Below are positions 1,307-59,055 of a DNA stretch of 64,000 nt, piece after piece. Source of the stretch: Clostridium sp. (lineage in GTDB: Bacteria; Bacillota; Clostridia; Clostridiales; Clostridiaceae); the NCBI RefSeq assembly GCF_047777555.1, contig NZ_JBKEEV010000007.1:7877-71876 (forward strand), written 5' to 3'. Made by a program: the position numbers and the translations under genes. The notes beneath the pieces were generated by a model. That model made no database searches and was not told the DNA's origin. It was given only the letters and a program-made list of their open reading frames with translations. Position 1 is the first letter of the stretch. Every line of letters starts with the position of its first letter.

Positions 1307-1919
1307 ATTTGACTTATCTCTGAAACTGACTAACTTGACGTCCTTAGTCCCGCTTTCATTATAAAAGCCTCATTACTACTGCGAATCCATCTGTACCTAT
1401 GCTAAATTCATGCCATCCTTTGCCGTTCATCATCTAGGCAGTAAACAGATTTCCTCTAGACTTGTCTCGAAAGCCACATAAAGTTTTGGTTTTGACTGCA
1501 CTTATGAGTCTTAACGAAGCTTCAACAGTTCTTCATTTTCGTTCAGCTTTACAATACATACCTTACTGTTTTATACCGCCTTTTCCTAATTGTGCTCAGT
1601 ACCACAACTTTTAATTATAGTACTCAATTGTGTTTTGTGGTCTGTACCTACATATCGACCACGGTAGGCCAACTATCATCTCTTAAAAAGCATTGTCTCA
1701 CTAAATACTTCTAGCATTCAGGGAACACTATGTGCTAAACTACTATTGTCTATTATTAACATACCTTCATTGTTGGTAACAATCGTTAAACTCACCACCA
1801 TTTTACATTAGAAGTATCTTTTTTCTATTCAACGTTAAAAGCCATTTAGGACCACAGGAAGAACCAGCAGTATTTATTAACCCAAAGATCAATAGCTTAA
1901 TAAATAGTGCTATCGACCT
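1307..1919 (-). ncRNA. Candidate large structured non-coding RNA (or decayed sequence) downstream of topB; class not recognised
   Basis: There is no ORF of 60 aa or more in any frame. By hand count, two 60-nt blocks give about 38% and 45% G+C, visibly above the flanks. The minus strand is purine/G-rich. Local hairpins: 1328-1349 and 1769-1783. Interleaved pseudoknot-type pairing: gtggtc 1637-1642 with gaccac 1657-1662, and cctac 1647-1651 with gtagg 1664-1668. Confidence 0.3.
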
Positions 1920-34359: not shown

Positions 34360-35082
34360 ATGAAAATTGATATTATTATTTCAGCAAATGATATTAAGAA
34401 AGAAAAAATTAAAGATAAAACAGTAGTTATTATAGATATACTTAGAGCTACATCTGTAATAATTACTGCTCTTAATAATGGATGTAATGAAGTAATTCCT
34501 GTAGTAGATGTGGAGGATGCAAAAAACTTAGTTAAAGATAGCAGAGAGAAATATATTCTAGGTGGGGAAAGAAATGCATTAAAAATTGATGGCTTTGATT
34601 TCTCTAATTCACCATTAGAGTATACTGAAGATATTGTAAAAAATAGAACTTTAGTAATGACTACAACTAATGGTACAAAAGCAATACACGGCACCTTAGG
34701 TGCAAAACATATATTAATAGGCGCTTTTATAAATGCAAAAGCTGTGGCTCAAAAGGCTATTGAGTTAAATAATGATTTAGTTATAGTTAATGCTGGAACC
34801 CGCGGTGAATTTTCTATGGATGATTTTATATGCAGCGGATACATAATAGAATGTATTTTAAAAAATGCATGTGTAGATTTATCTGACATCGCTGCTACTG
34901 CTCACTACATTTATACTCAAAATACAGATATACTAGGATTTTTAAGTAAAGCAAGGCATTATAAAGTACTTATGAATCTGGGACTTCAAAAGGATATAGA
35001 ATATTGCTGCAAAACTGATATCATAGATATAGTTCCTAGCTGCGACCTCACTTCTTATGGAATAAGAATACAAAAAAAGTGA
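34360..35082 (+). CDS. comB: 2-phosphosulfolactate phosphatase family protein
   Basis: 240 aa with the family motifs [11 protein letters not shown] and [16 protein letters not shown]. Confidence 0.8.
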
Positions 35083-35140
35083 TATTCAAAAGAATATCAC
35101 TTTAATTAACCGTATTTAAAACAATCTATTTAAATACTAA

Positions 35141-35341
35141 TTATAGTTTAACTACGTTAGCAGCTTGAGGTCCTCTAGCTCCCTCAGTTACTTCGAATTC
35201 AACTTTTTGGCCTTCTTCTAAAGTCTTGAATCCGTCTCCTTGGATAGCTGAGAAATGAACGAATACGTCATCTTCTCCTTCTACAGATATGAACCCAAAT
35301 CCTTTTTCTGCGTTAAACCATTTAACTGTTCCTGTTTTCAT
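35141..35341 (-). CDS. cspA: Cold-shock protein
   Basis: 66 aa with RNP motifs KGFGFI and VFVHF. Confidence 0.95.
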
Positions 35342-35901
35342 TGAAAAAATTCCTCCTAAAAAATCTTAAAATATATGCACACAGATTTCTACTTTTATGC
35401 GGAAACCAGCGAACAAACTACTTCATATTGTTCTCATCTTTATAGAATGAATCGGCCAATATTTTTAGCTTACTCAGTACATTATACTAATGGTATCATA
35501 TATAAATTCCATTGTCAATAAATCTATTTGCCCATTCATTCTGTTTCCTTGTTCTCTATTAGTTTTCCCAAAGAAATTTTTTATATTCACAAAATAATAA
35601 AAATACGATGCAATTTTATTATGTATAACATCACACATGGGATTTGCATTTAGAAAAGCTTCACTTCTCAAATAAGCTAAAAGGCAGTGGAAAAAGTGTA
35701 GGGAATATAGACGCTAAAGCGCTGAGTTTAGAAAATACCGATAATCTTTTTAATAAAATACATAACCAATTCATGTAAAAAATTACAATTTAAAACCACA
35801 GGTTCTATTACGTTCATTGCAGCTTGTTAGCAATAGCAGCAAACTTATATTAGTAGATGAAAAATGCTGCTGATATATATGTTATCAGCAACATTTCTTT
35901 G

Positions 35902-38143: not shown

Positions 38144-38578
38144 CTAGCTGTTCTCACTATTATTGATTAATGCCATTATTCCCATAATATATCCATATAT
38201 TCCAAAACCACTTATTTGACCAATGCAAGCTGCCGCTGTAACAGACTTATGCCTAAATTCTTCTCTTTTGTGAATATTGCTTATATGTACTTCAACCGTA
38301 GGAATTTGTACCGCCATTAGTGCATCATATATTGCGATACTATAGTGTGTATAAGCACCTGGATTTATTACAATTCCATCATATTTTCCATAGGCTAATT
38401 GTATATAATTGATTATTTCTCCTTCAATATTGCTTTGAACTATTTCCACATCAGCCAAATTCTCACTTTTTTCTTTTATATACCTGCACATATCATCATA
38501 AGCAGTAGTGCCGTATATATGCTTTTCTCTTATTCCTAGCATGTTTATATTTGGACCGTTTATTATTAATATTTTCAC
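38144..38578 (-). CDS. aroQ: 3-dehydroquinate dehydratase, type II
   Basis: 144 aa with the INPGAYTHYSIAIYDAL and VEVHISNIHKREEFRH motifs. Confidence 0.9.
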   Translation of the reverse strand: MKILIINGPNINMLGIREKHIYGTTAYDDMCRYIKEKSENLADVEIVQSNIEGEIINYIQLAYGKYDGIVINPGAYTHYSIAIYDALMAVQIPTVEVHISNIHKREEFRHKSVTAAACIGQISGFGIYGYIMGIMALINNSENS

Positions 38579-38619
38579 TGTTTATACCTCCATTTAAAAA
38601 TTTTGCAAAGCAAAATTTT

Positions 38620-39111
38620 TTATATTAAAGAAATAATTTTACTAATACTTTTTTTAATATCAACATTAGTTACTTTATAATCACAATACTTATTATAAAG
38701 TGGATATCTTTCATAATAAAGCTGATATAGTTTTTCAATGCCATCCTTTAATAGAGGTCTGCTTTTTACGTCTACATCTTGAGCAATATCTTCTATAGGC
38801 CTATCTATAAAAAATATGATTCCATTCTCTTTTAAGACTTTTATGTTGTCAGACCTTTTTACTGCACCTCCACCTGTTGCTATGACTTTAGGATAGGTTT
38901 TGCATATTCTTTCTATTGCCATGCTCTCAATATCTCTAAAGTATTCTTCTCCGTTTTTAAATATTTCAGAAATACTATGCTTTTCGCTTTCTACTATATA
39001 TTCATCCACATCACAAAATTCTATATTTAATTCATGGGCTATCCTTTTCCCTATGGTAGTTTTCCCACAGCCAGGCATACCTATTAGAACTATATTTTTA
39101 TTTAATTTCAT
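38620..39111 (-). CDS. aroK: Shikimate kinase
   Basis: 163 aa with the P-loop GMPGCGKTT. Confidence 0.9.
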   Translation of the reverse strand: MKLNKNIVLIGMPGCGKTTIGKRIAHELNIEFCDVDEYIVESEKHSISEIFKNGEEYFRDIESMAIERICKTYPKVIATGGGAVKRSDNIKVLKENGIIFFIDRPIEDIAQDVDVKSRPLLKDGIEKLYQLYYERYPLYNKYCDYKVTNVDIKKSISKIISLI

Positions 39112-39126
39112 AAATTTCTTCCCCTT

Positions 39127-39939
39127 TTATAGCAAATCGAAAAGCTCCCTATAAATTTTATCCACAGTTTCATCATTAATTTTTACACTATTCCACAACT
39201 CTTCTGACTTTATTGCTTGACCGACTAACATATAAAGTCCGTTTATTCCCTGTAATCCTAACTCTTTAGCGTATTTTAATAAAAGTGTTTCCTGTGGATT
39301 ATAAATTACATCTACAACTACTTTAAACTTTGAAATCAATTCTTTTGTTAATGGTGAAGCTTCAACTTTAGGATACATTCCAACAGGAGTACAGTTAATT
39401 ACTATATCTTTATTACTTTTTTCTTTAAGCTGCGTATAATTTATTACCTCAAATCCATTAAATTTTCTTTTTCCCTCTTCTACACTTCTGCTTACAAAGG
39501 TAATTTCTCCAGCATCATTATCTAACAAGTATTGAAGTACTGCTCTAGATGCTCCTCCAGTACCTAAAATAACCGCTTCTCTTCCTTTAATATCCACATT
39601 AAATTTGTTTAGCATCATTCCAAAGCCATAGTAATCTGTATTATATCCAACAGCTTTTCCCTCTTTAAAGCAAATAGTGTTAACAGCTCCTATATCTTTT
39701 GCTTCTTTAGATACATCATCTAAATATTTTATTACATCAATCTTATATGGAATGGTTACATTTACTCCCCTTACCTTAAGAGCCTTAAATCCTAAGATTG
39801 CATTTTGAAGATCTTCCTTATTTACTTCAAATAAATGATAGTATCCATCTATGCCTAACTCTTTGAATATTAAAGAATGTATTTGTGGAGAAAAGCTGTG
39901 CGGCAGACTCTCTCCTAATAATCCATATAGGTTTTTCAA
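39127..39939 (-). CDS. aroE: Shikimate dehydrogenase
   Basis: SFSPQIH and GVNVTIPYK motifs. A TTG at 39939 follows a strong GGAGGAG RBS. The track ORF extends to 39963. Confidence 0.85.
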   Translation of the reverse strand: MKNLYGLLGESLPHSFSPQIHSLIFKELGIDGYYHLFEVNKEDLQNAILGFKALKVRGVNVTIPYKIDVIKYLDDVSKEAKDIGAVNTICFKEGKAVGYNTDYYGFGMMLNKFNVDIKGREAVILGTGGASRAVLQYLLDNDAGEITFVSRSVEEGKRKFNGFEVINYTQLKEKSNKDIVINCTPVGMYPKVEASPLTKELISKFKVVVDVIYNPQETLLLKYAKELGLQGINGLYMLVGQAIKSEELWNSVKINDETVDKIYRELFDLL

Positions 39940-40021
39940 AATATTAACTCCTCCTTTCCTCACTATTTAATCCTAAATACTTTATAGGATTTTCTAGGCA
40001 TTAAGATTAAAATTGTGCCCT

Positions 40022-41182
40022 TTATAATTTCCCAAAAGCTTGAAAGTCATAGCTGTTGTTTTTTATATCTGCTATGGCTTCCTTCACAGCTTTACCATGC
40101 AAGTTTCCTTCAAAATCAATATAAAAGAAGTATTCAAAGGGCTTGCCTATGATTGGTCTTGATTCTATCTTTAACAAACTTAAATTGTACTCTGCAAAAA
40201 TACTCAATATATTGTAAAGAGAACCAGGCTTATGTGGTAAAGTTAATATAATGCTTATTTTATTATAATCTTTTTCTAATTCCAAATTTTTACCTATAAC
40301 TATAAATCTAGTATAATTATTTTTATTATAATTTATGTCATGTTTTATTACATCTAACCCATATATTTCCCCAGCTTTTGTGCTGGCTATGGCCGCCTTT
40401 TCTTTCCTATTTTCATTTTTTACAAACTCAGCACTTGCTGCTGTATTTCTATAAGGAATACATTTCCATTCCGGATAATATTTTAAAAACTCACTGCTTT
40501 GTTGAAGAGCTTGAGAGTGAGAATACACCTCTTTTATATCTTCTATTTTCGCTCCTTTTACGCCTAACAAATTATGAGTTACCTTTATAGTTCTCTCTCC
40601 TACTATGAAAAATCCGTATTTTCTTAGAAGATCATATACTTCTATTATGCCTCCTGTAGATGAATTTTCTATAGGAAGTATTCCATAATCTATTTCATTA
40701 TTTCTTAGAGCCTTAAATACATCCTCAAACTCTGCTACATTATGTGAATCTACATTCTCGCCAAAATACTCTAACAAGGCTTCTTCACTAAAAGAACCTT
40801 TAACCCCTTGAAATCCAACTTTTATATTTTCCTTTTTAGGTGTGCAGGCTGCTTCATAGCTTACCATATACTCTAAATCATTTCTACTATTTTCTCCTTC
40901 ATCCATGTTATACTCGAAAATTTTCCTTGCCTGAGCCTTCTTGCTAATAGCCATAACACTCTTTAAAAATTCTGCTTCTTCTTTCTTAAAGCCTTTGTTC
41001 TTTAAATACTTTATGTTTTTCTCAATAACCTCTTCTTCACGACTTTTATTTAGTATAGGTATATTATTTTCCTTCTTATACTGAGCTACTTTTAATACAG
41101 TCTCCATCCTCTTTTCAAATAGCTCTGTAAGTTGCTTATCTATATCATCTATTTGATTTCTCAAAATTTCTAAAGTGTCCAA
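40022..41182 (-). CDS. pheA: Bifunctional chorismate mutase / prephenate dehydratase
   Basis: 386 aa: N-terminal CM helix (LRNQIDDIDKQL..), a PDT domain (VGFQGVKGSFSEEA) and a C-terminal ACT-like region (ESRP). Confidence 0.9.
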   Translation of the reverse strand: MDTLEILRNQIDDIDKQLTELFEKRMETVLKVAQYKKENNIPILNKSREEEVIEKNIKYLKNKGFKKEEAEFLKSVMAISKKAQARKIFEYNMDEGENSRNDLEYMVSYEAACTPKKENIKVGFQGVKGSFSEEALLEYFGENVDSHNVAEFEDVFKALRNNEIDYGILPIENSSTGGIIEVYDLLRKYGFFIVGERTIKVTHNLLGVKGAKIEDIKEVYSHSQALQQSSEFLKYYPEWKCIPYRNTAASAEFVKNENRKEKAAIASTKAGEIYGLDVIKHDINYNKNNYTRFIVIGKNLELEKDYNKISIILTLPHKPGSLYNILSIFAEYNLSLLKIESRPIIGKPFEYFFYIDFEGNLHGKAVKEAIADIKNNSYDFQAFGKL

Positions 41183-41234
41183 CTACTTAATGCCTCCCCA
41201 TTTTTTTAGTAATCAGCTTTCTTTTAAACCTTAT

Positions 41235-42317
41235 CTAACTTATTAGTTCTAATATTCCCATAGCCGCTGCTGCCTCAACCACTGGCACTGCCCTTTGAAC
41301 AATGCATGGGTCATGTCTTCCTTCAATTCTTATCATAGTATTTTCTCTAGTTACAATGTCAACTGTTCTCTGCTCTTTTGCAATAGACGCTGTGGGTTTA
41401 AATGCAACTCTGAATATTAGGGGCATTCCGTTTGTTATTCCCCCCAATATTCCTCCATTGTTATTTGTGTAGGTTTTTATGTTATCATTCTCAATAAAAA
41501 ATTCATCATTAGCTTGTGAACCCTTCATTCTAGATATATTAAAGCCTGCACCAAATTCTACTCCCTTTACTGCTGGAATAGAAAACATAAGACTGCTTAA
41601 AATGCTTTCTACAGAGTTAAAAAATGGTGAACCTATTCCTGCAGGTAGATTTAAAATTGCACACTCCACAATTCCACCTATAGAATCTAATTCTTCTTTG
41701 CACTTTAATATCTCTTCCTTCATTTTTAAAGCCTTTTCTTCATCTATTGTAGGAAACTCTTTTTTAGATAATTCCTCTAACAACTCTTTTTTTATATTCA
41801 CACTATCAAAGTAATTATCTTCAACAGTGCCTATACTTTTTATGTGGCTTCCGATTATTATTCCTTGTTTCTTTAAAATCTGTTTTGCCACAGCTCCAGC
41901 AAATACAATAGGAGCTGTAAGTCTTCCAGAAAAATGGCCTCCTCCTCTATAATCATTAAAACCTTCATACTTTATAAATCCAGTATAGTCAGCATGACTC
42001 GGTCTTAAAAGGCTCTTTGTTTTTTCATAATCCTTTGAGTGTTGATCACTGTTTTTTATAGTAATGCAAAGAGGAGTACCTGTAGTCCTATTATTAAAAT
42101 ATCCGCTCTGTATTTGGAATTCATCTTTTTCATTTCGTGCTGTAGAAAACTTATTCTTTCCTGGAGCACGTCTTCTCATTTCTCTATTTATTTCTTCTAT
42201 ATCAAGTTCTATTCCTGATGGTAAGCCATCTATAATTATTCCTATGGAATTCCCATGAGATTCTCCAAAAATAGAGTATTTTATTTTATTTCCCCATACT
42301 CCACTCATATACTGCAC
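41235..42317 (-). CDS. aroC: Chorismate synthase
   Basis: 360 aa with FGESHG and RPSHAD motifs. Confidence 0.9.
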
Positions 42318-43583
42318 CCCCTAGCTTTTTAAAATCTTCCCAAAAATGTGGATAAGATTTGTTAACAGCCCTGCTGTTTGTTATTATGAGCTCTTTTTCA
42401 CATTTTATGGATGCAACAGCCATAGCCATAGCTATTCTATGATCATTCCAGCTATCTACAACTCCACCCTTTAAAACTTTCTTTCCTTTTATTATAAGTC
42501 CATCTTTAAGTTCTTCTACTTCAGCCCCTATTTTATTAAGTTCTGTTGCCATAGCCTTTAATCTATCACATTCCTTAATTCTTACCCTTTCAGCATTTAT
42601 TATCTTTGTAGTTCCTTCGCTTACTGCCCCAAGAACAGATAAAATAGGTACAAGGTCTGGACATTCAGAAGCATCTATGGTGATTCCTTTAGTAGTTGAT
42701 TGTTTTACATCTATAGAGTCATCTCTTACCTCTATTTTCCCTCCCATTTCCTTTGCTATGTCCAGTATTACCTTATCTCCTTGAAGTGAATTTACATTCA
42801 AATCTTTGCATCTTATTTCTTTTCCTAAAATACCTGCAACTATCCAAAAGGCTGCTTGAGAAAAATCTCCTTCAACTCTATAATCCATAGCTTTGTACTT
42901 TTGATTTCCTTTAATATGAAACTCTTTATAGTCATTATTTTCTATTTCTATTCCAAACTTCTTCAAGCAATCTATGGTTAAATCTACATAACCTTTTGAT
43001 TCTAGTTCTGTAGTCATTATAATTTTAGAATCTCCCTCTAAAAGTGGAAGTGTAAACATAAGACCAGTTATAAACTGAGAACTTATATTTCCCTTAACAA
43101 AAAAGTCCCCTGACTTTAATTTACCTTTTACTTTTAAAGGAAGCTCACCTTTATTGGTTTCATATTTTATTCCCTGCTTTTCAAATATGTCATAATACAC
43201 ATTGAGAGGTCTTGATACTAATTTTCCTCTTCCTTGAAAGGTTATTTCTTCTCCGGTAAGCAATGCTATGGAATCAAAAACCTTAAAGTTGAACCTGATT
43301 CTATACAATCTATAGTATCTTTTATGAGTATAGGATATGACCTACCTCTTATGCTTAAATTATCGCTATAATTTTCAATTTCTACCCCAAGGCTCTTCAT
43401 GCCTTCTATAGTAGCCTTAATATCCTGTGAATATATAATATTACTTATGTTACTTACCCCTTCTGAAAGTCCAGCACATATAACAGCCCTATGTGCTAAG
43501 CTTTTAGATGGAGGAATATTTATCTCTCCTTTTAAGGAGCTTGGCATAATTCTTATGTTCTCCAATATATCATCTCCTCTCAT
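42286..43583 (-). pseudogene. aroA: EPSP synthase split by a single-base frameshift (or an assembly error)
   Basis: The 105-aa ORF ends ...GSTLRFLIP*. The overlapping 340-aa ORF continues [15 protein letters not shown]. One missing base near 43268-43270 would join them. Confidence 0.8.
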
Positions 43584-43585
43584 CT

Positions 43586-44644
43586 TTAAAGGAAATTAGC
43601 TATTTCTTCTCTTCTTATTTTGTGAATAAAAGCTTCTCCAATATCTTTTAAAAGAATTATATTTATAAATTCTCCCTTGTTTTTCTTATCTAGGGATATT
43701 GCATTTAATATACTTTCCTTATCTTCTAAATTAATCTCATTTTGAAGATTATACTTACTTAAAGTTTCAGCTATTAGAGAAGCTGTTCCTTCTTTAGTTA
43801 TCTTCATCTCTTCGCTCTTCTTAGTTATCATATACATTCCTAAAGCCACAGCTTCCCCATGAGTATACTTCTCAAAATTATAATATTTTTCAATAGCATG
43901 CCCTATAGTGTGTCCGAAATTTAAAATCATTCTTTCTCCAGTGTCCTTTTCATCCTTCTCCACTATTTCTTTCTTTATAGAACAGCAAGTGTAAATTATA
44001 TCCTCCATATTATCTAAAAGGCTTTTTTCATCATATTTCATGAGCTTATAAAATAAATCCTTATCCCTTATACAGCCATATTTTATTACCTCTCCCATAC
44101 CATCGCTAAAAAATCTCTTATCTAAAGTACTTAGTACATTTGGATCTATAAATACCGCTTCTGGATGATAAAAACTGCCTACTAAGTTCTTTCCCCTCGG
44201 TAAGTCTACAGCAACCTTCCCACCTATGCTGCTGTCTATCTGAGCTAAAAGAGAAGTCGGTATTTGTACATATGGGACTCCTCTAAAAAGAGTAGATGCT
44301 GCAAAGCCTGTTAAATCTCCTATAACGCCTCCTCCAAGGGCAACTATAAGTTCACCCCTTGTAATTCCTGTATCTAAAAGTTCATCATATAAATTTATAA
44401 GCTCCTCTATAGACTTACTCTTTTCTCCAGATTTCACTACAATCTTAAAGGTTTTAAACCCAGCATTCTCTAGGCTGGACTTTACCACATTTCCATAAAA
44501 CTTATCTACATTCTCATCCGTTACTATAACTACCTTCTTACCACTGTATATCTTATTTATTTCTTCCCCTATCACCTTTAAGATTCCTCTTTTTATATAT
44601 AAGGGGTAGCTCTTATCACTAAGTTTTACTTGAAGCAGCCTCAA
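43586..44644 (-). CDS. aroB: 3-dehydroquinate synthase
   Basis: 352 aa with GGGVIGDLTGFAAS and FGHTIGHAIE motifs. Confidence 0.9.
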   Translation of the reverse strand: MRLLQVKLSDKSYPLYIKRGILKVIGEEINKIYSGKKVVIVTDENVDKFYGNVVKSSLENAGFKTFKIVVKSGEKSKSIEELINLYDELLDTGITRGELIVALGGGVIGDLTGFAASTLFRGVPYVQIPTSLLAQIDSSIGGKVAVDLPRGKNLVGSFYHPEAVFIDPNVLSTLDKRFFSDGMGEVIKYGCIRDKDLFYKLMKYDEKSLLDNMEDIIYTCCSIKKEIVEKDEKDTGERMILNFGHTIGHAIEKYYNFEKYTHGEAVALGMYMITKKSEEMKITKEGTASLIAETLSKYNLQNEINLEDKESILNAISLDKKNKGEFINIILLKDIGEAFIHKIRREEIANFL

Positions 44645-45508
44645 CTAGGACATCTCCTCTCTCTTTTTACTAGCTCTATTTAATATATTACCTAAAGCTT
44701 CAGTATCCTCATTTATCAAAGCATGTTTTATATCTGCAATATTTTTTTCAAATTTCTCTATGTGATTAATCAAATTTTCCTTATTTCCTATAAAGAGTTC
44801 AGTCCATAATTTTGTATTGATTCTAGCTATTCTAGTAAGATCCATATAGCTATCTCCAGTAAATTTCCCAGTATCTATTTCAAGATTATCGCTATTAACT
44901 AAGGATACTGCTATAACATGAGGAAGTTGGCTTACAAAGCCTATAACTTCATCATGCTTTTCCACACTTATTTTTTCTACATGTTTAAATCCCATATCTT
45001 TTGCTATATTTTCTATAAGCCTTATATTTTTTTCTTTGTTTCTTTCAGTAGGAGTTATTATATAATTTGCTCCTTTGAATATTTCCTTAGAAGCATACCT
45101 TAATCCAGTAAACTCTCTTCCAGCCATAGGGTGCCCAAAGATAAAATCAATATCTTCTCTTAAAATAGAATTTATATCTTTAGCAAATTCCTTTTTTATT
45201 CCTACAACATCTGTTATTACCGCACCACTTTTAAAATTATCTATGTTATCTTTGATAAACTTTTTTATACTTTTAGGATATATACATATTATTACTAAAT
45301 CTGATTCTTTTAGAGGAATCTCAGGACCTAGAAAACCCTTATCAATGATTCCTCTTTTCTCCCCAAGTTTTATAGCTTCTTCATCTATGTCAACAGCATA
45401 AAGCCTTTTAGGATTTAACTCTCTCAAAGCCAAAGCATATGAGCCCCCTATAAGCCCTAATCCTACAATAGTTATATTTAAATCTAGCCCCATCATAGTT
45501 ACCCCCAT
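44645..45508 (-). CDS. tyrA: Prephenate dehydrogenase
   Basis: 287 aa with the NAD-binding motif IVGLGLIGGS. The true start may be the ATG at 45496. Confidence 0.85.
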   Translation of the reverse strand: MGVTMMGLDLNITIVGLGLIGGSYALALRELNPKRLYAVDIDEEAIKLGEKRGIIDKGFLGPEIPLKESDLVIICIYPKSIKKFIKDNIDNFKSGAVITDVVGIKKEFAKDINSILREDIDFIFGHPMAGREFTGLRYASKEIFKGANYIITPTERNKEKNIRLIENIAKDMGFKHVEKISVEKHDEVIGFVSQLPHVIAVSLVNSDNLEIDTGKFTGDSYMDLTRIARINTKLWTELFIGNKENLINHIEKFEKNIADIKHALINEDTEALGNILNRASKKREEMS

Positions 45509-45517
45509 ACAGCATTC

Positions 45518-46531
45518 TTAGATTTCTTTTCCAACCGCCTTTGCTATCACAGCTAATGTTTTCATAAGGTCTTCAAATTTTTCAGGTTTAAGTGATTGAG
45601 AACCATCACTTTTTGCCTTAGCTGGATTATTATGAACCTCTATCATAAGGCCGTCTGCCCCTGCTGCTACAGCAGCCTTAGCTAGTGGTTCTACAAGCCA
45701 CCAAATTCCTCCTGCATGGCTTGGGTCTACGATTATAGGTAAGTGACTATGTCTTTTTATTACTGGTACTGCACTTAAATCCAATGTATTTCTAGTGTAA
45801 TTTTCATAAGTTCTTATTCCTCTTTCACATAAAATTACATTCTCATTTCCCTCTGACATTATATATTCTGCTGACATTAAAAACTCTTCTATAGTTGCAG
45901 CCAATCCTCTTTTTAAAAGTATTGGTTTCCTTGTTTTTCCCAATTCTTTTAAGAGGTCAAAATTTTGCATGTTTCTTGCCCCTACCTGAATTACATCTAC
46001 ATCTTCTACGAATTTATCTATCATCTTAGGTGACATTATCTCTGTAACTATAGGCAATCCTGTTTCTTTTTTTGCTATTTTTAAAAGCTCCAGTCCTTCT
46101 AGCCCCATCCCTTGGAAGCTGTATGGAGAAGTCCTTGGCTTAAAAGCTCCACCTCTTAAAAAGTTAGCCCCTGATTTTTTTACTTGTTTTGCAAGCTCCA
46201 CTATCTGTTCTTCACTTTCTACTGAACAAGGTCCTGCCATTACGGCTAGCTTATTGCCCCCAATAAGCTCACTGCCTACAGGTATTATTGAATCTTCAGG
46301 ATGGAAAAGCCTATTTGCTTTTTTATATGGCTCCTGCACATGAACTATTTTTTCAACTTCTTCATATGCTTCTACTTGTTTTGGATCGATTATGGTTGTA
46401 TCTCCAACCAATCCAAGTATACAGTATTTCTCACCTTCTACCTCATGGACTTCAATTCCTTTTTCAATTATGTCCTGTTTAATTCTTTCAATACTTTCTC
46501 TTGTTGCGTTGTGTTTCATTACAATAATCAT
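45518..46531 (-). CDS. aroF: 3-deoxy-7-phosphoheptulonate (DAHP) synthase, type I-beta, with an N-terminal regulatory domain
   Basis: 337 aa with GPCSVES and [16 protein letters not shown] motifs. Confidence 0.9.
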
Positions 46532-46556
46532 AAAATAACCCCCCTATAAATTTTTA

Positions 46557-46586
46557 TAAAAAAAGAGACTCATTAATGAGTCTCTT
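46557..46586 (-). terminator. Attenuator terminator immediately upstream of aroF
   Basis: Perfect 11-bp stem aagagactcat / atgagtctctt (46563-46586), followed by a 7-U run on the minus strand and then GGGGGG-ATG of aroF. Confidence 0.8.
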
Positions 46587-46647
46587 ATATATCTACATTG
46601 ATACACTACTAATCTTGAACTATTCAAAGTGTCTTTTTATTTATAGA

Positions 46648-46773
46648 TTAACTCATTAGAATGGGAATTTTAAATTTTTTACAAGACAAATAACCAGCGT
46701 TAAAAAAATAACCCCAGTTTCTAAAGTAAAAGCTATATTGTCTTGCTATTCCTCTGCTAATAAGTCTTTTCAT
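46648..46773 (-). CDS. Aromatic-rich leader peptide of the aro operon (41 aa)
   Basis: Not in the ORF track: MKRLISRGIARQYSFYFRNWGYFFNAGYLSCKKFKIPILMS. It follows a GGAGGAAAAGTA RBS. 10 of 41 residues are F, Y or W. It sits between a consensus promoter and the attenuator terminator. Confidence 0.65.
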   Translation of the reverse strand: MKRLISRGIARQYSFYFRNWGYFFNAGYLSCKKFKIPILMS

Positions 46774-46819
46774 TACTTTTCCTCCAAATAGAAGATTTGT
46801 AGTTTAATTATTGTGTAGA

Positions 46820-46848
46820 ATTATACCACTCTCAAATTTTATGTCAAT
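46820..46848 (-). promoter_or_regulatory. SigA-type promoter of the aro leader
   Basis: On the minus strand: TTGACA (46848-46843), a 17-nt spacer, and TGgTATAAT (extended -10; TATAAT at 46825-46820). Confidence 0.7.
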
Positions 46849-47036
46849 ACTTTATAATAAAAATATTAACACTTTTTGATCCCATATAATATATTATATT
46901 AGGTCCACAATACCTTCAAAACTTTTAGACAAGCTACACAATCCTAACAATATATCTTAAATCTATGATTTAGTGATAGTCGTCACTCATATGAAAATAA
47001 TGAAAGAGTTTTACACTCAATGGAGGTGACTATAAT

Positions 47037-47309
47037 ATGCTAGGTTCATTTTTGTTTCCACTATTGTTCCTAGGCGGACTTGGCCGCGGCGGATGTGGTC
47101 ATGGTTACGGCGGATATGGTGGATGTAGTGGATGTGGATGTACTCCCCGCTGCTTTAATCCGTGTGATTGTTGTGATGATTGTCATCATAAACATCATAA
47201 ACACTGCAAACACCATAAACACGAAGAGTGCTGCTGCCAATGCTATCCTATGAATTCTTGTTGTCAACCTTATAATAAATGCGGATCATTCTTTGATTGG
47301 TTCTGCTGA
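47037..47309 (+). CDS. Cys/His/Gly-rich small protein with a hydrophobic N-terminus
   Basis: 90 aa with about two dozen Cys, including HHKHHKHCKHHKHEECCC. GGAGGTG RBS and a strong terminator hairpin at 47317-47349. Confidence 0.6.
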   Translation: MLGSFLFPLLFLGGLGRGGCGHGYGGYGGCSGCGCTPRCFNPCDCCDDCHHKHHKHCKHHKHEECCCQCYPMNSCCQPYNKCGSFFDWFC

Positions 47310-47353: not shown

Positions 47354-48947
47354 CTAAATAAGTCCCTTTTCTTTTAAAAACTCATCAGCTACAGTTCTTG
47401 GATCTTCCCCTAGTTTATCTACTTTATAATTAAGCTCTCTCATAGCTACCTCATCTATTTGTCCTGCTAACTTGTTTAAAATTCCTTTAATTCTGGATAC
47501 TTTTGAAGGGTATCTTTTCTAATTATAGGTGCTGCATGGTATGGTGGAAACAGATGTTTATCATCCTCTAGCGTTACAAGATTGTACGCCTTTAAAAGAC
47601 CATCTGTTAAAAATGCATCGGTTATATCTGACTCTTTATTGTTTATCGCCGTATACCTAAGTCCTCCATCAACAGGCTTTATCTTATGAAACTTAGTACC
47701 ATATAGTTTTTGCATTCCTATATATCCATCTTCTCTATCTGTAAACTCCATAGTAGGTCCAAAAACAAAGTTTTTTCTTTTCCCTTTAGGTCTGACATCT
47801 TTTTTAAATTATATTTTTTTGCCGTATCTTCTCTTACTGCGAGAACATAGGTATTGTTAAAGCCTAGTGGTTCTAACCAAGTAAGCCCATATTCTTTATC
47901 GAAATGCTCTTTTACTACTTTGTAGGCCTCCTGCGGATCATTTATACTTTCATGATTCATAATGTTTATAAGTCCAGTGCCTACATATTCAATATACATA
48001 TCTATGTCTCCAGCCTTTATAGCCTCAAAGGTTACACTAGATCCTCCCAGATTTAATCCAGTTCTCTTTACATTTAAGTCTGTATTTTTTTCTACTAAAG
48101 TTGCAAACATGTTTCCTAATATAAGTTGTTCTGTATAATTTTTAGAGCCTACTACAAATTCCTTACCTCCACTATATGCTTTGTAGCTTATACCTCCTAT
48201 AGCTATAATAATAACTAGAAGTGATGCCGTAATAACTATTGTCCTAGTTTGCTTATCTCTTTTTCTACTTCTACTTCTTCTTTTTATTTTTTTCTCTTTA
48301 CCTTCTTTATTTAACTTTATTCCTTCTGGAACTACAGAATTTTCTATCTTACCCACTATAAAATCCATTAAAAGAGCTAGTATACAAGCTGGCACAGCTC
48401 CTGATAAAATCATGTAATTATCTACTCTTTGAACTCCTGTAAACACCATGTATCCAAGGCCACCTGCTCCTATAAAAGCAGCAATAGTCATGAGTCCCAC
48501 GGCTGTAACAGCTGCAATTCTGATACCTGCCATTATAACAGGAAGTGCTAATGGAATCTGTACCATTTTAAGTTTTTGTCTTCCTGTAAGCCCTATACCA
48601 TCTGCAGCTTCAAGCATATCTGGATTTATGTTTTTAAGTCCAGTATACGTATTTTTAACTATAGGAAGTAATGAATATAAAAACACCATAACTATGGCTG
48701 GAGCACTTCCTATACCAAGTACTGGAATTAAAAATCCAAGTAATGCAATACTAGGTACGGCTTGAACTACATTAGCTAACCCAATTATGGGACCAGCTAA
48801 CCTTTTCTTTCGTGTAATCAATATTCCTAATGGAACTCCTATCAGTATAGCTGCGATAACAGCAGCAATAGTAAGTCCTATATGCTGTAACAGTAGTTGA
48901 ATAATTTGATCTTTTCTGTCTATAAGGTATGTTAAAAATTCTCTCAC
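47354..48947 (-). pseudogene. Osmoprotectant ABC transporter, fused permease and substrate-binding protein, at least two frameshifts
   Basis: The 409-aa ORF (permease plus the start of the SBP) derails at T-run 47771-47776. The 91-aa ORF continues the SBP (MEFTDREDGY...). A third frame after ~47480 reads [42 protein letters not shown]. Confidence 0.75.
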
Positions 48948-52079: not shown

Positions 52080-53264
52080 CTATACCCCCTCTCCAGCTAT
52101 CCCTGCAATTATAGTAGATCTTTTTATAATTCCAAGTAAGGTATTATCCTCATCTGTAACTGCAATTGGATATCTTGTGTTTGCAGCCACTGATAATAAC
52201 TCCGCAATAGGTACATCTGGTAAAGTTGTAGGGAAGTCATTTATCAATGCTTTATCTACACTTGAAATTCCTTGTTTTGAAAGTTCTATAGCATCTTCTA
52301 TGTTTATTATTCCTTTTAGCTTTCTTTCCTTATCTGTAACATATATACTTGCTATTCCCTCATCTTTCATAATTCTAACAGCTACTTTAGGTCCGTCCTT
52401 TACAAGATTAATAGCTTTAGATTTCTCCATAATAGTTGAGGCAGTAATAACCTTTGTCCTATCTACATCTTCAACAAATTTCTTTACATAATCACTAGCT
52501 GGATGTGTCAGTATATCCTCTGACGTACCGATTTGCTCTATTACACCATCTTTCATTATGGCTATTCTATCTCCTAATCTTAACGCCTCATCCAAGTCAT
52601 GGGTTATAAATATAATTGTTTTATGCATTTTAGATTGCAGTTGAAGCATTTCTTCCTGCATTTCCTTACGTATTAACGGATCTAATGCACTAAAAGCTTC
52701 ATCCATAAGCAATATTTCTGGGTCCGTAGCTAGTGCTCTAGCAATACCAACTCTCTGTTTCATTCCTCCACTTAATTGGTCTGGCATACTTTGTTCATAA
52801 CCCTTTAAGCCAACCAATTCTAAAGCCTTTTCAGCTTTTTCCCTTCTAATATTAGCATCTATTCCTTGCAACTCTAAACCATATTCAACATTGCTTATAA
52901 TATTTCTATGAGGAAGAAGCGCAAAATTCTGGAACACCATAGCTATCTTTTTTCTTCTAATTTCTCTTAATCTCTCATCGTTTACTTTTAAAATATCTTC
53001 TCCATCTATCAAAATCTCACCACTTGTAGCATCTATAAGACGATTTAAACATCTTATAAGAGTGGATTTACCACTGCCCGATAGACCCATTACTACAAAA
53101 AATTCTCCATCACCTACTTTAAAACTTGCATTATTAACTCCAACAGAATGTCCTGTCTTCTTATGAATTTCTTCTTTACTCATTCCTTTTTGCAAAAGCG
53201 GAATAATCTTCTTAGGGTTTCTTCCAAACACTTTATATAAATTTTTTATTTCTATTTGTGCCAT
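52080..53264 (-). CDS. opuAA: Glycine betaine/proline ABC transporter ATPase with tandem CBS domains
   Basis: 394 aa with GLSGSGKST, LSGGMKQRVGIARAL and LLMDEAFSALD. Confidence 0.9.
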   Translation of the reverse strand: MAQIEIKNLYKVFGRNPKKIIPLLQKGMSKEEIHKKTGHSVGVNNASFKVGDGEFFVVMGLSGSGKSTLIRCLNRLIDATSGEILIDGEDILKVNDERLREIRRKKIAMVFQNFALLPHRNIISNVEYGLELQGIDANIRREKAEKALELVGLKGYEQSMPDQLSGGMKQRVGIARALATDPEILLMDEAFSALDPLIRKEMQEEMLQLQSKMHKTIIFITHDLDEALRLGDRIAIMKDGVIEQIGTSEDILTHPASDYVKKFVEDVDRTKVITASTIMEKSKAINLVKDGPKVAVRIMKDEGIASIYVTDKERKLKGIINIEDAIELSKQGISSVDKALINDFPTTLPDVPIAELLSVAANTRYPIAVTDEDNTLLGIIKRSTIIAGIAGEGV

Positions 53265-53475
53265 ACTTACCCTCCTTTATCATTAAAATAACTAGGCTTA
53301 TTTCCATTATATAAACAAACAACTTTGTAATTTTATTAAGTTGTATGAATACAACAATTTTATACTATCATTAAAGTTGTTACTTGTCAAATTTTTGTGT
53401 AATGTATATCCAGTAACTAAAATAAATAAAAAGTGGTTTATTACAATTATGTAATCACCACTTTTTTATCATAAA

Positions 53476-54108
53476 CTATTTCATATTTTCATTTTCCAAA
53501 TATTTTTTTATCCTGTGAGATAAATTATCGTCTCCTACAACTAAAATTTTATCGCCTCTTTTAAATTCTAAATATGGACCTGGAGACACTAATATCTTAT
53601 CTTCTCTCTTTACTCCAACTATAGTTCCTCCTGTATTGTGCCAGAATTCACTCTCTCCTATAGTCTTTCCTATTATATGAGATTCCTCAGGGATTTCAAT
53701 TTCTATAGGTTCCACAAAATCTGTATTTCTAAATCTATATGAGTAATCTATAATTTTTTCATTTACATCCTGTATCTGTTTTTCTATCCTTTTTCTATCT
53801 TCGAGAAGCTTTTTCATTGTGCTTTTCAGCATTCCTATGCTTTCTTTTTCTTTGAAACTTTCAACAAACTGATAAGCTTTTTCAGAAGATTTTATTATTA
53901 TTCCACTTCCCTTATTTACTTCCACAACTCCCTTATCTTCTAAAAGCTTCATAGACTTCCTTATAGTCTCTGGGGAAACATTATATTCTCCTGCAAGAAC
54001 TGAACGTCCTCTCAGCTTTTCTCCTTCTACTAGTTCTCCTTTATAAATTCTAGCTGCCACATCTACTGATATTTTAATATATCTGGGCATTTCAATACGC
54101 TCACCCAT
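53476..54108 (-). CDS. GntR-family regulator with a C-terminal TrkA-C (RCK_C) domain
   Basis: wHTH segment LAGEYNVSPETIRKSMKLLEDKGVV. The C-terminus resembles TrkA-C (IGKTIGES...GDKILVVGD). ATG at 54108 follows a GGAGGG RBS. Confidence 0.75.
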   Translation of the reverse strand: MGERIEMPRYIKISVDVAARIYKGELVEGEKLRGRSVLAGEYNVSPETIRKSMKLLEDKGVVEVNKGSGIIIKSSEKAYQFVESFKEKESIGMLKSTMKKLLEDRKRIEKQIQDVNEKIIDYSYRFRNTDFVEPIEIEIPEESHIIGKTIGESEFWHNTGGTIVGVKREDKILVSPGPYLEFKRGDKILVVGDDNLSHRIKKYLENENMK

Positions 54109-54186
54109 GCTGTAACCCTCCAAAACTCTATTATAATCCTATTTGCAAGTTAGATTATAGCACAAACTTATTACATGGGGAAATAA

Positions 54187-57317: not shown

Positions 57318-58748
57318 TTATTTATCATAAGCTGGTACTGCTTGCGTATCTCTGCGCTTTGTTCTATATAAAAATACTCCAAATGTTATAGCCGCAGCTA
57401 ATAATCCTACTACATTTGACACTAATCCATTGATTCTAAATCCTTCCGGCGCCTGCATTATATAGCTTATACATACAGCTGTCATAAATATAGCCGGAAT
57501 AGTTGATATCCAATGATTCTTATTTGATTTAACTAAATATACAGAACATGCCCAAAGAGTTACCATTGCAAATGCTTGAGTTAACCATCCCATATATCTC
57601 CAAAGAATAGGGAATTGAACAAAAGTTAAGAATACAGATATAACAAACATTGGTACAGCAAGTATTAATCTATTTTTAATCTTATCCTGTGGGAAATGAA
57701 TTATATCTCCTAATGCAAGCCTTGCACTTCTAAAAGCAGTATCCCCTGTAGTTATTGGACATGCTACAACTCCAAGTATTGTAAGTACACTTCCAACTGG
57801 ACCTAACAATGTTTTAGTTATTTCAAATACTGCTCCAGAAGCACCGGACTTACCAAGTACTACCTTGCCAAGTTCAGGAACTCCATTATAGAATGCAAGT
57901 CCTGCTGCTATCCAGATAAGCGCAATAACCCCTTCTACAATCATAGCCCCGTAAAACGAATGTCTACCATACTTTTCAGATTTAAGGCATCTTGCCATCA
58001 AAGGTGATTGAGTAGCGTGGAATCCAGATATAGCACCACAAGCAATAGTAACAAACATCATAGGCCACATAGGTGTATTGTTAGGATGTAGATTAGAAAA
58101 GCTTAGCTCAGGAATATGGTAACTCTTAAAAATTATTCCTCCTCCAACACCTGCTGCCATTATCAACAAACAAGTGCCAAATATAGGATATATCTTCCCA
58201 ATAATTACATCAATAGGAAGAATAGTTGCTAAGAAATAATAGATAAATATAACTGCTATCCAAAAGTTTCTATCTAAATGTTCTGGAGTTAACTGTGCTA
58301 ATAAGTCTGCTGGGCCTGTAACAAATACAACTCCTACAATGATGCAAAAGAAAACTGTTATAACTCTCATTATACTTTGAACTTTTTTTCCAAGATACAT
58401 TCCATGTATTTCTGAAAGACTTGCCCCATCATGTCTTAATGAAATCATACCTGATAAATAATCATGAACAGCTCCTCCTAAAACACAACCTGCTATTACC
58501 CATAGAAATGCCACTGGTCCAAACAATGCCCCTTGTAATGCACCAAATATAGGTCCTAACCCCGCAATATTTAAAAGCTGGATTAAAAAAACCTTCCACG
58601 TGGGCATAGGAATATAATCGACTCCATCCTGCATTGAATAAGCTGGAGTTTCTTTAGGAAAATCTGCACTAAATTGTTTTTCAACATACTTAGAATAAAA
58701 CAAAAATCCTGATAAAAGAAGTAATAGCCCAATGATAAAAGTATACAT
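57318..58748 (-). CDS. cstA: CstA-family transporter (short form)
   Basis: 476 aa polytopic protein with the N-terminal CstA signature LNIAGLGPIFGALQGALFGP...GGAVHDYLSGM. Terminator hairpin at ~57268-57296. Confidence 0.85.
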   Translation of the reverse strand: MYTFIIGLLLLLSGFLFYSKYVEKQFSADFPKETPAYSMQDGVDYIPMPTWKVFLIQLLNIAGLGPIFGALQGALFGPVAFLWVIAGCVLGGAVHDYLSGMISLRHDGASLSEIHGMYLGKKVQSIMRVITVFFCIIVGVVFVTGPADLLAQLTPEHLDRNFWIAVIFIYYFLATILPIDVIIGKIYPIFGTCLLIMAAGVGGGIIFKSYHIPELSFSNLHPNNTPMWPMMFVTIACGAISGFHATQSPLMARCLKSEKYGRHSFYGAMIVEGVIALIWIAAGLAFYNGVPELGKVVLGKSGASGAVFEITKTLLGPVGSVLTILGVVACPITTGDTAFRSARLALGDIIHFPQDKIKNRLILAVPMFVISVFLTFVQFPILWRYMGWLTQAFAMVTLWACSVYLVKSNKNHWISTIPAIFMTAVCISYIMQAPEGFRINGLVSNVVGLLAAAITFGVFLYRTKRRDTQAVPAYDK

Positions 58749-58834: not shown

Positions 58835-59055
58835 AAAAAGACCTACTTCTGCCCCAAAAAGGGGCGGAAAGTAGGTCCGCGGTACCACCCAAATTTATCA
58901 CTCATTTCACATAACGGCACAAGCCGGCTCAGCTTACTAAAACTTCAGCCTACGGCTCAAGGATGATTTTCAGCAACCTTAGTATGTGGGTTCTCACCTA
59001 TCTCCACTCTCTGTAAGACATATCTTTGCTTACTCTTTCCTATCATCGCTTTGAA
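58835..59055 (-). promoter_or_regulatory. T-box leader riboswitch, probable AUC (Ile) specifier
   Basis: On the minus strand: a stem I with GA/K-turn (GCGAUGAU...UGAGC), an AGAGAG box, a GGUGAGA distal loop, and a specifier loop GAAAAUCA before helix UCCU. The T-box motif AAAUUUGGGUGGUACCGCGG is at plus 58877-58896. A terminator follows (gacctacttctgcccc / ggggcggaaagtaggtc, 58840-58877) with a U-run. Confidence 0.85.

Follow-up and report, generated by a model that had tools for sequence, protein, structure and literature searches.

A probable leader-peptide attenuator of the uORF-13 class upstream of a clostridial aro operon

The subject here is the leader of an operon for aromatic amino-acid biosynthesis in a Clostridium sp., contained in a 64-kb stretch of contig NZ_JBKEEV010000007.1 that is called the window below. 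Directly upstream of aroF, and with all of its parts on the minus strand of the window, is what is very probably a ribosome-mediated transcription attenuator that senses the supply of aromatic amino acids through translation of a leader peptide. It most likely switches the operon on when Phe, Tyr or Trp is short. The weight of the evidence lies in the combination of the parts and in their conservation, not in the aromatic-rich open reading frame (ORF) alone: a promoter and strong Shine-Dalgarno sequence lead a 41-codon ORF, segments within and after that ORF (regions 1, 2 and 3) have alternative pairing partners, and an intrinsic terminator stands just before aroF. By every feature stated for the published uORF-13 class, the element appears to be a member of it. 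An earlier note, made from the letters of the window, had proposed an attenuator at this place, and what became of its several claims is told with the evidence that bears on them.

The leader and its peptide

A consensus scan gives both promoter hexamers in full, as the earlier note had them, separated by 16 nucleotides (nt) where it had counted 17 (Table 1). Transcription would start near 46813, and a TTGACA / TGnTATAAT-like promoter is at the equivalent relative position in leaders L001-L004. The Shine-Dalgarno-led ORF of 41 codons is as first described, and GGAGG or GAGG is spaced alike in nearly all homologous leaders. Translation bears out that nine of the 16 residues at positions 13-28 are aromatic (Y13, F15, Y16, F17, W20, Y22, F23, F24 and Y28), the entire peptide having 10. 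The spacer between ORF and terminator, put at about 60 nt, measures 61; its sequence is not conserved, and here its fold does not surpass shuffles (z = -0.9), with structure in some other species (z down to -4.3). The terminator hairpin is a perfect 24-nt palindrome (AAGAGACUCAUU/AAUGAGUCUCUU), and the seven T that follow are as claimed, while the stem has 10 base pairs and a 4-nt loop, UUAA (-13.2 kcal/mol), not the 11 pairs of the note. The ATG of aroF, at 46531, is 26 nt past the T-run, one more than the 25 given before.

Table 1. Parts of the putative attenuator and the operon downstream of it, in window positions
Feature	Position	Strand	Remarks
-35 hexamer TTGACA	46847-46842	-	Consensus scan, 12/12 together with the -10 hexamer
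-10 hexamer TATAAT	46825-46820	-	Extended, with TGg before it; TGgTATAAT is 46820..46828
Shine-Dalgarno GGAGG	46785-46781	-	7 nt 5' of the mini-ORF ATG
Leader ORF, 41 codons + TAA	46773..46648	-	Peptide MKRLISRGIARQYSFYFRNWGYFFNAGYLSCKKFKIPILMS
Putative sensing codons, 9 Phe/Tyr/Trp among codons 13-28	46690..46737	-	Within the loop closed by helix 1:2
Region 1, codons 3-9, GACUUAUUAG..GGAAU	46748..46766	-	5' strand of the predicted anti-antiterminator helix 1:2
Inner hairpin AACUGG(G)GUU / AAC(G)CUGGUU, 8-nt U-rich loop	46692..46719	-	Fold and alignment
Region 2, AUUCC..UCUAAUGAGU	46650..46668	-	Predicted alternative partner of region 1 or 3; ends at the stop codon
Spacer between ORF and terminator, 61 nt	46587..46647	-	Small hairpin UUUGAA-UAG-UUCAAG at about 46628-46614
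Region 3, GACUCAUUA, in the terminator 5' arm and loop	46574..46582	-	Region 2 partner in the predicted antiterminator 2:3
Intrinsic terminator	46558..46586	-	Hairpin 46586-46563 and T-run (7 T) ending at 46558
Operon aroF-tyrA-aroB-aroA-aroC-pheA-aroE-aroK-aroQ, presumed to be regulated	38144..46531	-	Pfam scans and ORF list

On the single sequence, when the 400 nt before aroF were shuffled 200 times, no ATG-ORF with 9/16 aromatic residues arose (mean 2.5), and the leader folds better than its shuffles (z = -3.9, 0/200). For comparison, a scan with the AroF protein, one genome per species, supplied 80 Firmicutes loci, and the mini-ORF was defined as an ATG-ORF of 15-70 codons with at least 7/16 aromatic residues. 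Such a mini-ORF is upstream of aroF in 52 of the 80 and on the reverse complement in 0/80; in 40 loci the observed aromatic value was reached by at most 2 of 200 shuffles. Beyond AT-rich Clostridium the positives include Veillonella (KQYFYWFFIQ), Acidaminococcaceae, Sedimentibacter-like (YFSYFISNYYYYFYFS) and Oscillospiraceae (SFSFYFGWARFMGTGYFG) leaders, and since these upstream regions are about 40-64% GC, base composition cannot explain the aromatic enrichment there. A terminator-like hairpin with T-run is present in 19 Clostridium-type leaders; 16 more distant leaders were folded as well, and most of them have it too.

Sixteen Clostridium aroF leaders, that of the window not among them, went into a covariance model, R1 (141 positions, helix 1:2 and the inner hairpin of Table 1). 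Against the window it gives a full-length match at 46648-46787 on the minus strand (99.5 bits, E about 1e-15), the next best match scoring 19 bits. Against the 80 loci it matches 25, all on the same strand and directly upstream of aroF, nine of them outside the training set. One training leader, L001, is from C. massiliodielmoense, which we take to be close to C. novyi, the uORF-13 type species. The closest AroF relatives of the window are from Clostridium spp. at 80% identity. Four metagenome contigs with the same AroF (L081-L084) have leaders that are 100% identical and therefore give no microvariation; the mini-ORF is not gene-called in them. The exact leader peptide is likewise absent from the gene-call index, and thus gene callers do not call the mini-ORF; neither the peptide nor three homologues matched anything in Pfam or NCBIfam.

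Two features of related leaders may be set beside these comparisons. In the C. lacusfryxellense group (L018 at about 2880-2960, L024 at about 640-720) the aroF leader has two tandem terminator hairpins, the first carrying the ACUCAUUAUAAGGG arm and the second a near-copy of it (GACCCAUUAUAAAGGGUC). In L015, a Phascolarctobacterium metagenome-assembled genome, the DNA directly upstream of the matched aroF resembles by eye the 3' end of a DAHP-synthase gene; a weak leader-model match (1581-1721, E 0.036) is about 1.3 kb upstream of that aroF, and because of this an attenuator may control a tandem DAHP-synthase pair there.

Is it the codons or the RNA that selection has kept? In a 17-sequence alignment (A1) the stretch from the ATG to region 2 has 50 gap runs, every one of them 3, 6 or 9 nt long, and there is synonymous variation at Ala (GCU/GCC/GCA) and Gly (GGU/GGC/GGA) codons. 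The sole 1-nt gaps are in region 2, which the window, L013 and L014 read as ..LMS and the others as ..SNE, the nucleotides CUAAUGAG being kept nonetheless. With gaps in multiples of three on the one hand and a change of frame in region 2 on the other, constraint acts on the middle of the ORF through its codons and on its 3' end through the RNA. Nucleotides are conserved in region 1, in the stems of the inner hairpin and, whatever the frame, in region 2, and the leader is well folded. This is what would be expected of a translation-independent RNA switch, where a small molecule, protein or tRNA selects between helices 1:2 / 2:3 and the terminator and the ORF is incidental. We regard such a switch as very improbable, since the distance from Shine-Dalgarno sequence to ATG is fixed, the indels in the body of the ORF are all multiples of three, and the aromatic enrichment is confined to the coding strand and recurs in GC-rich relatives of quite different nucleotide sequence; helix strands can explain the conserved non-aromatic residues, and the leader is without T-box core, TRAP-type triplet run or Rfam match at E <= 10.

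The searches behind that last statement were as follows. Rfam 15 was scanned at the gathering threshold for the whole window and at E <= 10 for the leader, and no leader, T-box or riboswitch family appeared in 46450-47050 at that level, only spurious matches driven by the terminator. A T-box was rejected on the lack of any covariance match at E <= 10, the best fit to the GGGUGGUACCGCG core having 7/13 mismatches, and a TRAP site on the lack of a run of at least four (G/U)AG triplets at 2-3 nt spacing in the 284-nt leader.

The Clostridium-type peptide follows the pattern M.N(L/I)I.KGI...(Y/F)YFYFSWG(Y/F)(F/Y)YFSAGYF.CKKI....SNE, with the aromatic clusters at the equivalent place in all relatives. 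Its core, FYFSWGYFYFSAGYF, is kept from Clostridium to Oscillospiraceae (FGWARFMGTGYF), including the non-aromatic W-G and S-A-G. It is this which gives some appeal to a nascent-peptide sensor, a TnaC-like arrest in which the core halts the ribosome on a free metabolite and hungry codons play no part. We give it even less credence than the RNA switch: W-G and S-A-G are encoded by the strands of the inner hairpin, which offers an explanation of their conservation as RNA, the more distant leaders (L010, L016, L021, L036-L041, L055 and L067) keep the aromatic richness and not the motif, and a biosynthetic operon needs induction by starvation, which hungry codons give directly. The residues 'KGI' and 'IP..SNE' may in the same way be conserved because they encode the pairing of helix 1:2.

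The same peptide core, with the strong promoter and strong Shine-Dalgarno sequence, could alternatively mark the gene of a small functional hydrophobic protein with a terminator of its own, with aroF dependent on another promoter or on read-through that is partial and constitutive. This we also consider very improbable. The C-terminus of the mini-ORF is variable and frame-shifted among species, the ORF is always directly upstream of aroF on the same strand, the alternative pairing between the end of the ORF and the terminator arm would lack a role, and a promoter scan found no second strong promoter in the 26 nt between terminator and aroF.

Competing helices and the proposed switch

The pairing on which an attenuator would turn is that between the end of the ORF and the terminator. 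The earlier note had pointed to eight complementary nucleotides, and these are exact: TAATGAGT (46658-46651), which the stop TAA (46650-46648) adjoins, against ACTCATTA (46581-46574). A pairing between AAUGAG, from the ORF end, and CUCAUUA, from the 5' arm and loop of the terminator, is present in 19/19 Clostridium-type leaders, and an AAUGAG/AAUGGG : CUCAUUG pairing is also visible in Oscillospiraceae leaders. In the window the 2:3 duplex, UAAUGAGUU : GACUCAUUA, has -10.3 kcal/mol (z = -3.45, 2/300 shuffles), and over the 19 leaders the duplexes range from -6 to -12 kcal/mol with a mean z of -3.0. CUCAU is invariant in the 17 aligned leaders, the remaining terminator stem differing. The core of 2:3 is 90.8% paired, versus 27-46% with the partner slid, and when the segment from region 2 to region 3 is folded without the terminator 3' arm it is closed by helix 2:3 in all 19 leaders.

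The alternative partner of region 2 went unnoticed in the earlier note. Region 1, GACUUAUUAG..GGAAU (46766-46748), pairs with AUUCC..CUAAUGAGU (46668-46650) in a 1:2 duplex of -16.0 kcal/mol (z = -4.66, 0/300 shuffles; mean z of -4.2 over 19 leaders), and the minimum free energy structure of the window leader combines helix 1:2 with the terminator. On that folding model helix 1:2 would make termination the default state, which would also explain how in some species the stop codon can be up to 17 codons past region 2.

Also missed was the inner hairpin, which helix 1:2 encloses. The Trp codon (a single UGG, 46716-46714) is part of its 5' strand, Phe/Tyr codons make up its loop and a U-rich tract follows. 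The window's own was seen in the fold and in alignment A3, and one is predicted in every Clostridium-type leader; with differing stem sequences it recurs in Oscillospiraceae (L043, L045-L048, L050, L053, L066, L077) and Veillonella (L038, L054). Its cells are 84.8% paired, versus 20-46% when slid, and it is the only helix that RNAalifold finds de novo on the ORF alignment. Since the single UGG is also in this conserved stem, conservation of Trp need not reflect sensing. The claim that all three end products are represented in the peptide holds for the presence of Phe, Tyr and Trp codons, with Trp sensing resting on one codon.

The attenuator can be envisaged as working in the following way. 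Transcription would start at the consensus promoter and the leader RNA would form competing helices 1:2, 2:3 and 3:4, the last being the terminator. With no ribosome, or after run-through and release, 1:2 and 3:4 would form and transcription would end 26 nt before aroF; a ribosome on the stop codon, which here adjoins region 2, would cover region 2 and the terminator would form as well. Scarcity of charged Phe-, Tyr- or Trp-tRNA would stall the ribosome at codons 13-28, inside the 1:2 loop. There it would keep region 1 from region 2: in a stall at the first aromatic cluster the 5' edge of the ribosome would overlap the 3' half of region 1, and a queued second ribosome over codons 1-10, for which the strong Shine-Dalgarno sequence would leave room, probably helps, the two forming a disome. 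Region 2, so freed, would pair with the emerging region 3, no terminator would form, and polymerase would read through into aroF. As a conjecture, the inner hairpin and its U-tract may hold RNA polymerase in a pause that lets translation keep up. In E. coli trp it is the 1:2 hairpin that pauses polymerase until the ribosome arrives.

A number of observations weigh on the other side. ATG-ORFs with at least 7/16 aromatic residues are 24 in the window, mostly antisense to genes, and four have at least 9, and because such ORFs are not rare in an AT-rich window the aromatic ORF alone is only suggestive. It is on these that a chance ORF in AT-rich intergenic DNA, beside an ordinary terminator-like palindrome, would have to be argued; we find that scarcely credible given conservation across many species and families, the 99.5-bit match of a window-free model, and 52/80 versus 0/80 between strands. 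Variability by codon position in A1 (0.56 / 0.69 / 0.74) is a weak gradient and not decisive. The search of orthologous leaders that the earlier note had recommended did find the aromatic mini-ORF, in 52/80 loci, and not the covarying alternative helices it had hoped for: none of 1:2, 2:3 and the inner hairpin covaries more than its shuffle controls do, because the paired columns are mostly invariant, and helix 1:2 is not recovered by RNAalifold. The support for the helices is conserved pairing potential and thermodynamics, not covariation. Regions 2 and 3 are unusually far apart, 61 nt here and 51-85 nt in relatives. The aromatic codons 13-28 lie between regions 1 and 2 and not inside region 1 (codons 3-9), and because a stall at the late cluster would not cover region 1, either steric exclusion or a queued ribosome has to be assumed. 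In the open-access literature no experimental support for regulation by the clostridial element was found.

Relation to described attenuators

The classical proteobacterial attenuators are trpL, pheL and hisL, represented in Rfam by Trp_leader, Phe_leader and His_leader. With them the window element shares an ORF rich in codons for the end product, a terminator just before the first gene and, on the model above, the 1:2/2:3/3:4 logic and termination by default, and to this extent the trp/phe-type logic of the earlier note is supported. It departs from them in having no match to any Rfam leader family at E <= 10, a longer ORF (41 codons), an extra inner hairpin, the 61-nt gap between regions 2 and 3, and three amino acids represented; the presumed sensing codons are in a loop of about 80 nt between regions 1 and 2, where the classical ones are inside region 1, so that the regulatory codons are not where trp/phe-type logic would put them.

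The near relation is elsewhere. The uORF-13 class was described as a predicted attenuator upstream of C. novyi aroF (Stav et al. 2019, BMC Microbiol 19:66, PMC6429828, Fig. 6b, supplement/Table S1b), with its type locus in C. novyi NT (NC_008593.1/2309418-2308872). It has 336 unique examples from Clostridiales, Bacillales, Thermoanaerobacterales, Negativicutes and metagenomes, and its context is 3-deoxy-7-phosphoheptulonate synthase (aroF), tyrA and other shikimate genes (PMC6429828). A short ORF led by a ribosome-binding site precedes a terminator stem, and a conserved F-Y-F is encoded within the P1 loop (PMC6429828). The window has the same succession of GGAGG, ATG, 41 codons and then a 10-bp terminator hairpin with T-run, the same gene context of aroF-tyrA and shikimate genes, and a Firmicutes host. 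Its F15-Y16-F17 (46731-46723) is inside the helix 1:2 loop, so placed that P1 of the published drawing would correspond to helix 1:2; Veillonella leaders have YFY in the outer loop only. Measured against the portion of that publication available here, the window element shows no difference of kind, and the same portion makes no mention of a pairing between region 2 and the terminator arm, of an inner hairpin at the Trp codon, or of the Trp codon itself. The view in the earlier note that attenuation of this type is uncommon in Clostridia does not stand against 336 published examples and an aromatic mini-ORF at 52 of 80 aroF loci.

Three other aromatic leaders invite comparison. uORFC-13-1 (Brewer et al. 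2021, RNA Biol 18:2417, PMC8632094) is a Phe-codon uORF with terminator, exclusively upstream of aroF, for which the speed of Phe incorporation was proposed to control the terminator; its 24 examples are only from Acholeplasma and environmental sequences (PMC8632094). Because of that restriction, and because R1 matches nothing in the Acholeplasmatales locus L035, it looks separate or very divergent. The aroR attenuator of Corynebacterium glutamicum, cited in PMC6429828, has an F-Y-F leader peptide before aromatic biosynthesis genes; it is actinobacterial, and Stav et al. describe the rest of its peptide, and its RNA structure, as distinct (PMC6429828). uORF-12 is an F/Y-rich attenuator of Firmicutes, mostly before amino-acid transporters and sometimes before shikimate genes, with its peptide encoded immediately before P1, in contrast to the P1 loop of uORF-13 (PMC6429828); a simple ORF scan recognised no uORF-12-like element in the window. 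None of uORF-13, uORF-12, uORFC-13-1 or the Corynebacterium aroR attenuator is in Rfam 15.

Neighbouring genes and wider meaning

The Pfam-based gene content of the operon, with tyrA and pheA confirmed as the earlier note had them, gives chorismate, Tyr and Phe as products; aroF is at 45518-46531 on the minus strand and pheA encodes a CM-PDT-ACT protein (chorismate mutase / prephenate dehydratase / ACT). In mid-operon aroA (EPSP synthase, 42286-43583, minus strand) is split into two overlapping ORFs, one of 105 amino acids (aa) that matches the Pfam profile at positions 4-99 and one of 340 aa that matches it at 103-416; the split may reflect a frameshift, a pseudogene or an error of assembly. 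A permease-OpuAC fusion gene upstream of the aro promoter (47476-48947, minus strand) is likewise split, into ORFs of 409 and 91 aa, and is called as a single 531-aa gene in the metagenome contigs L081-L084, whose aroF region is identical; being the second apparent frameshift after aroA, it suggests sequence errors in the source of the window. Divergent from the aro promoter is a Cys/His/Gly-rich ORF of 90 aa (47037-47309, plus strand; ..GGCGHGYGGYGGCSGCGC..HHKHHKHCKHHKHEECCC..). It has no Pfam match, is called as a gene in two (L081, L083) of the four related contigs and could be a small metal-binding protein.

Further away, a full-length T-box leader (58857-59055, minus strand, 119 bits) precedes a CstA-family gene (57318-58748), that is a carbon starvation / peptide-pyruvate transporter and not an aminoacyl-tRNA synthetase or biosynthetic operon; the idea that this T-box controls a trp operon was rejected on account of that gene. 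The promoter region (53290-53400, minus strand) of an Opu-type ABC transporter operon (ATPase 52080-53264) follows closely on a GntR-TrkA_C regulator gene (53476-54123) and has ACAACTT / AAGTTGT as repeated inverted motifs; these are probably operator sites of that regulator. A link of the opuB riboswitch to the neighbouring Opu transporter genes was considered and set aside, the opuB motif being mainly enterobacterial. Rfam matches at the gathering level also include a cspA thermoregulator (35073-35386, minus strand, 82 bits) and a group II intron D1-D4 fragment (1560-1677, minus strand, 71 bits).

For annotation, the attenuator accounts for the 'empty' 500 nt upstream of aroF, and its recognition illustrates that a reading of raw sequence can recover a real regulatory element. 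Published in 2019, the uORF-13 class has so far figured only in a supplement, as a bioinformatic candidate, and gene annotation does not include it. The impression that Clostridia lack leader-peptide attenuation is corrected: among the sampled Clostridia, Oscillospiraceae and Negativicutes most aroF operons have a leader ORF rich in aromatic codons. Of lasting value are an explicit switch model, with 1:2, 2:3, 3:4, the inner hairpin and a frame-independent region 2, and an unusual geometry, both of which are testable.

As to that geometry, it is a tentative thought, and on balance a doubtful one, that hungry codons located in a loop, a dedicated inner hairpin and joint sensing of Phe, Tyr and Trp set it apart in kind from textbook attenuators. 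With the codons in a loop, read-through may need the stalled ribosome as a wedge, possibly with a queued ribosome on region 1, and the inner hairpin may serve as a dedicated element for RNA-polymerase pausing or for coupling transcription to translation. If so, the family would represent a separate variant of leader-peptide attenuation and would be what chiefly controls the common aromatic pathway across Clostridia and Negativicutes.

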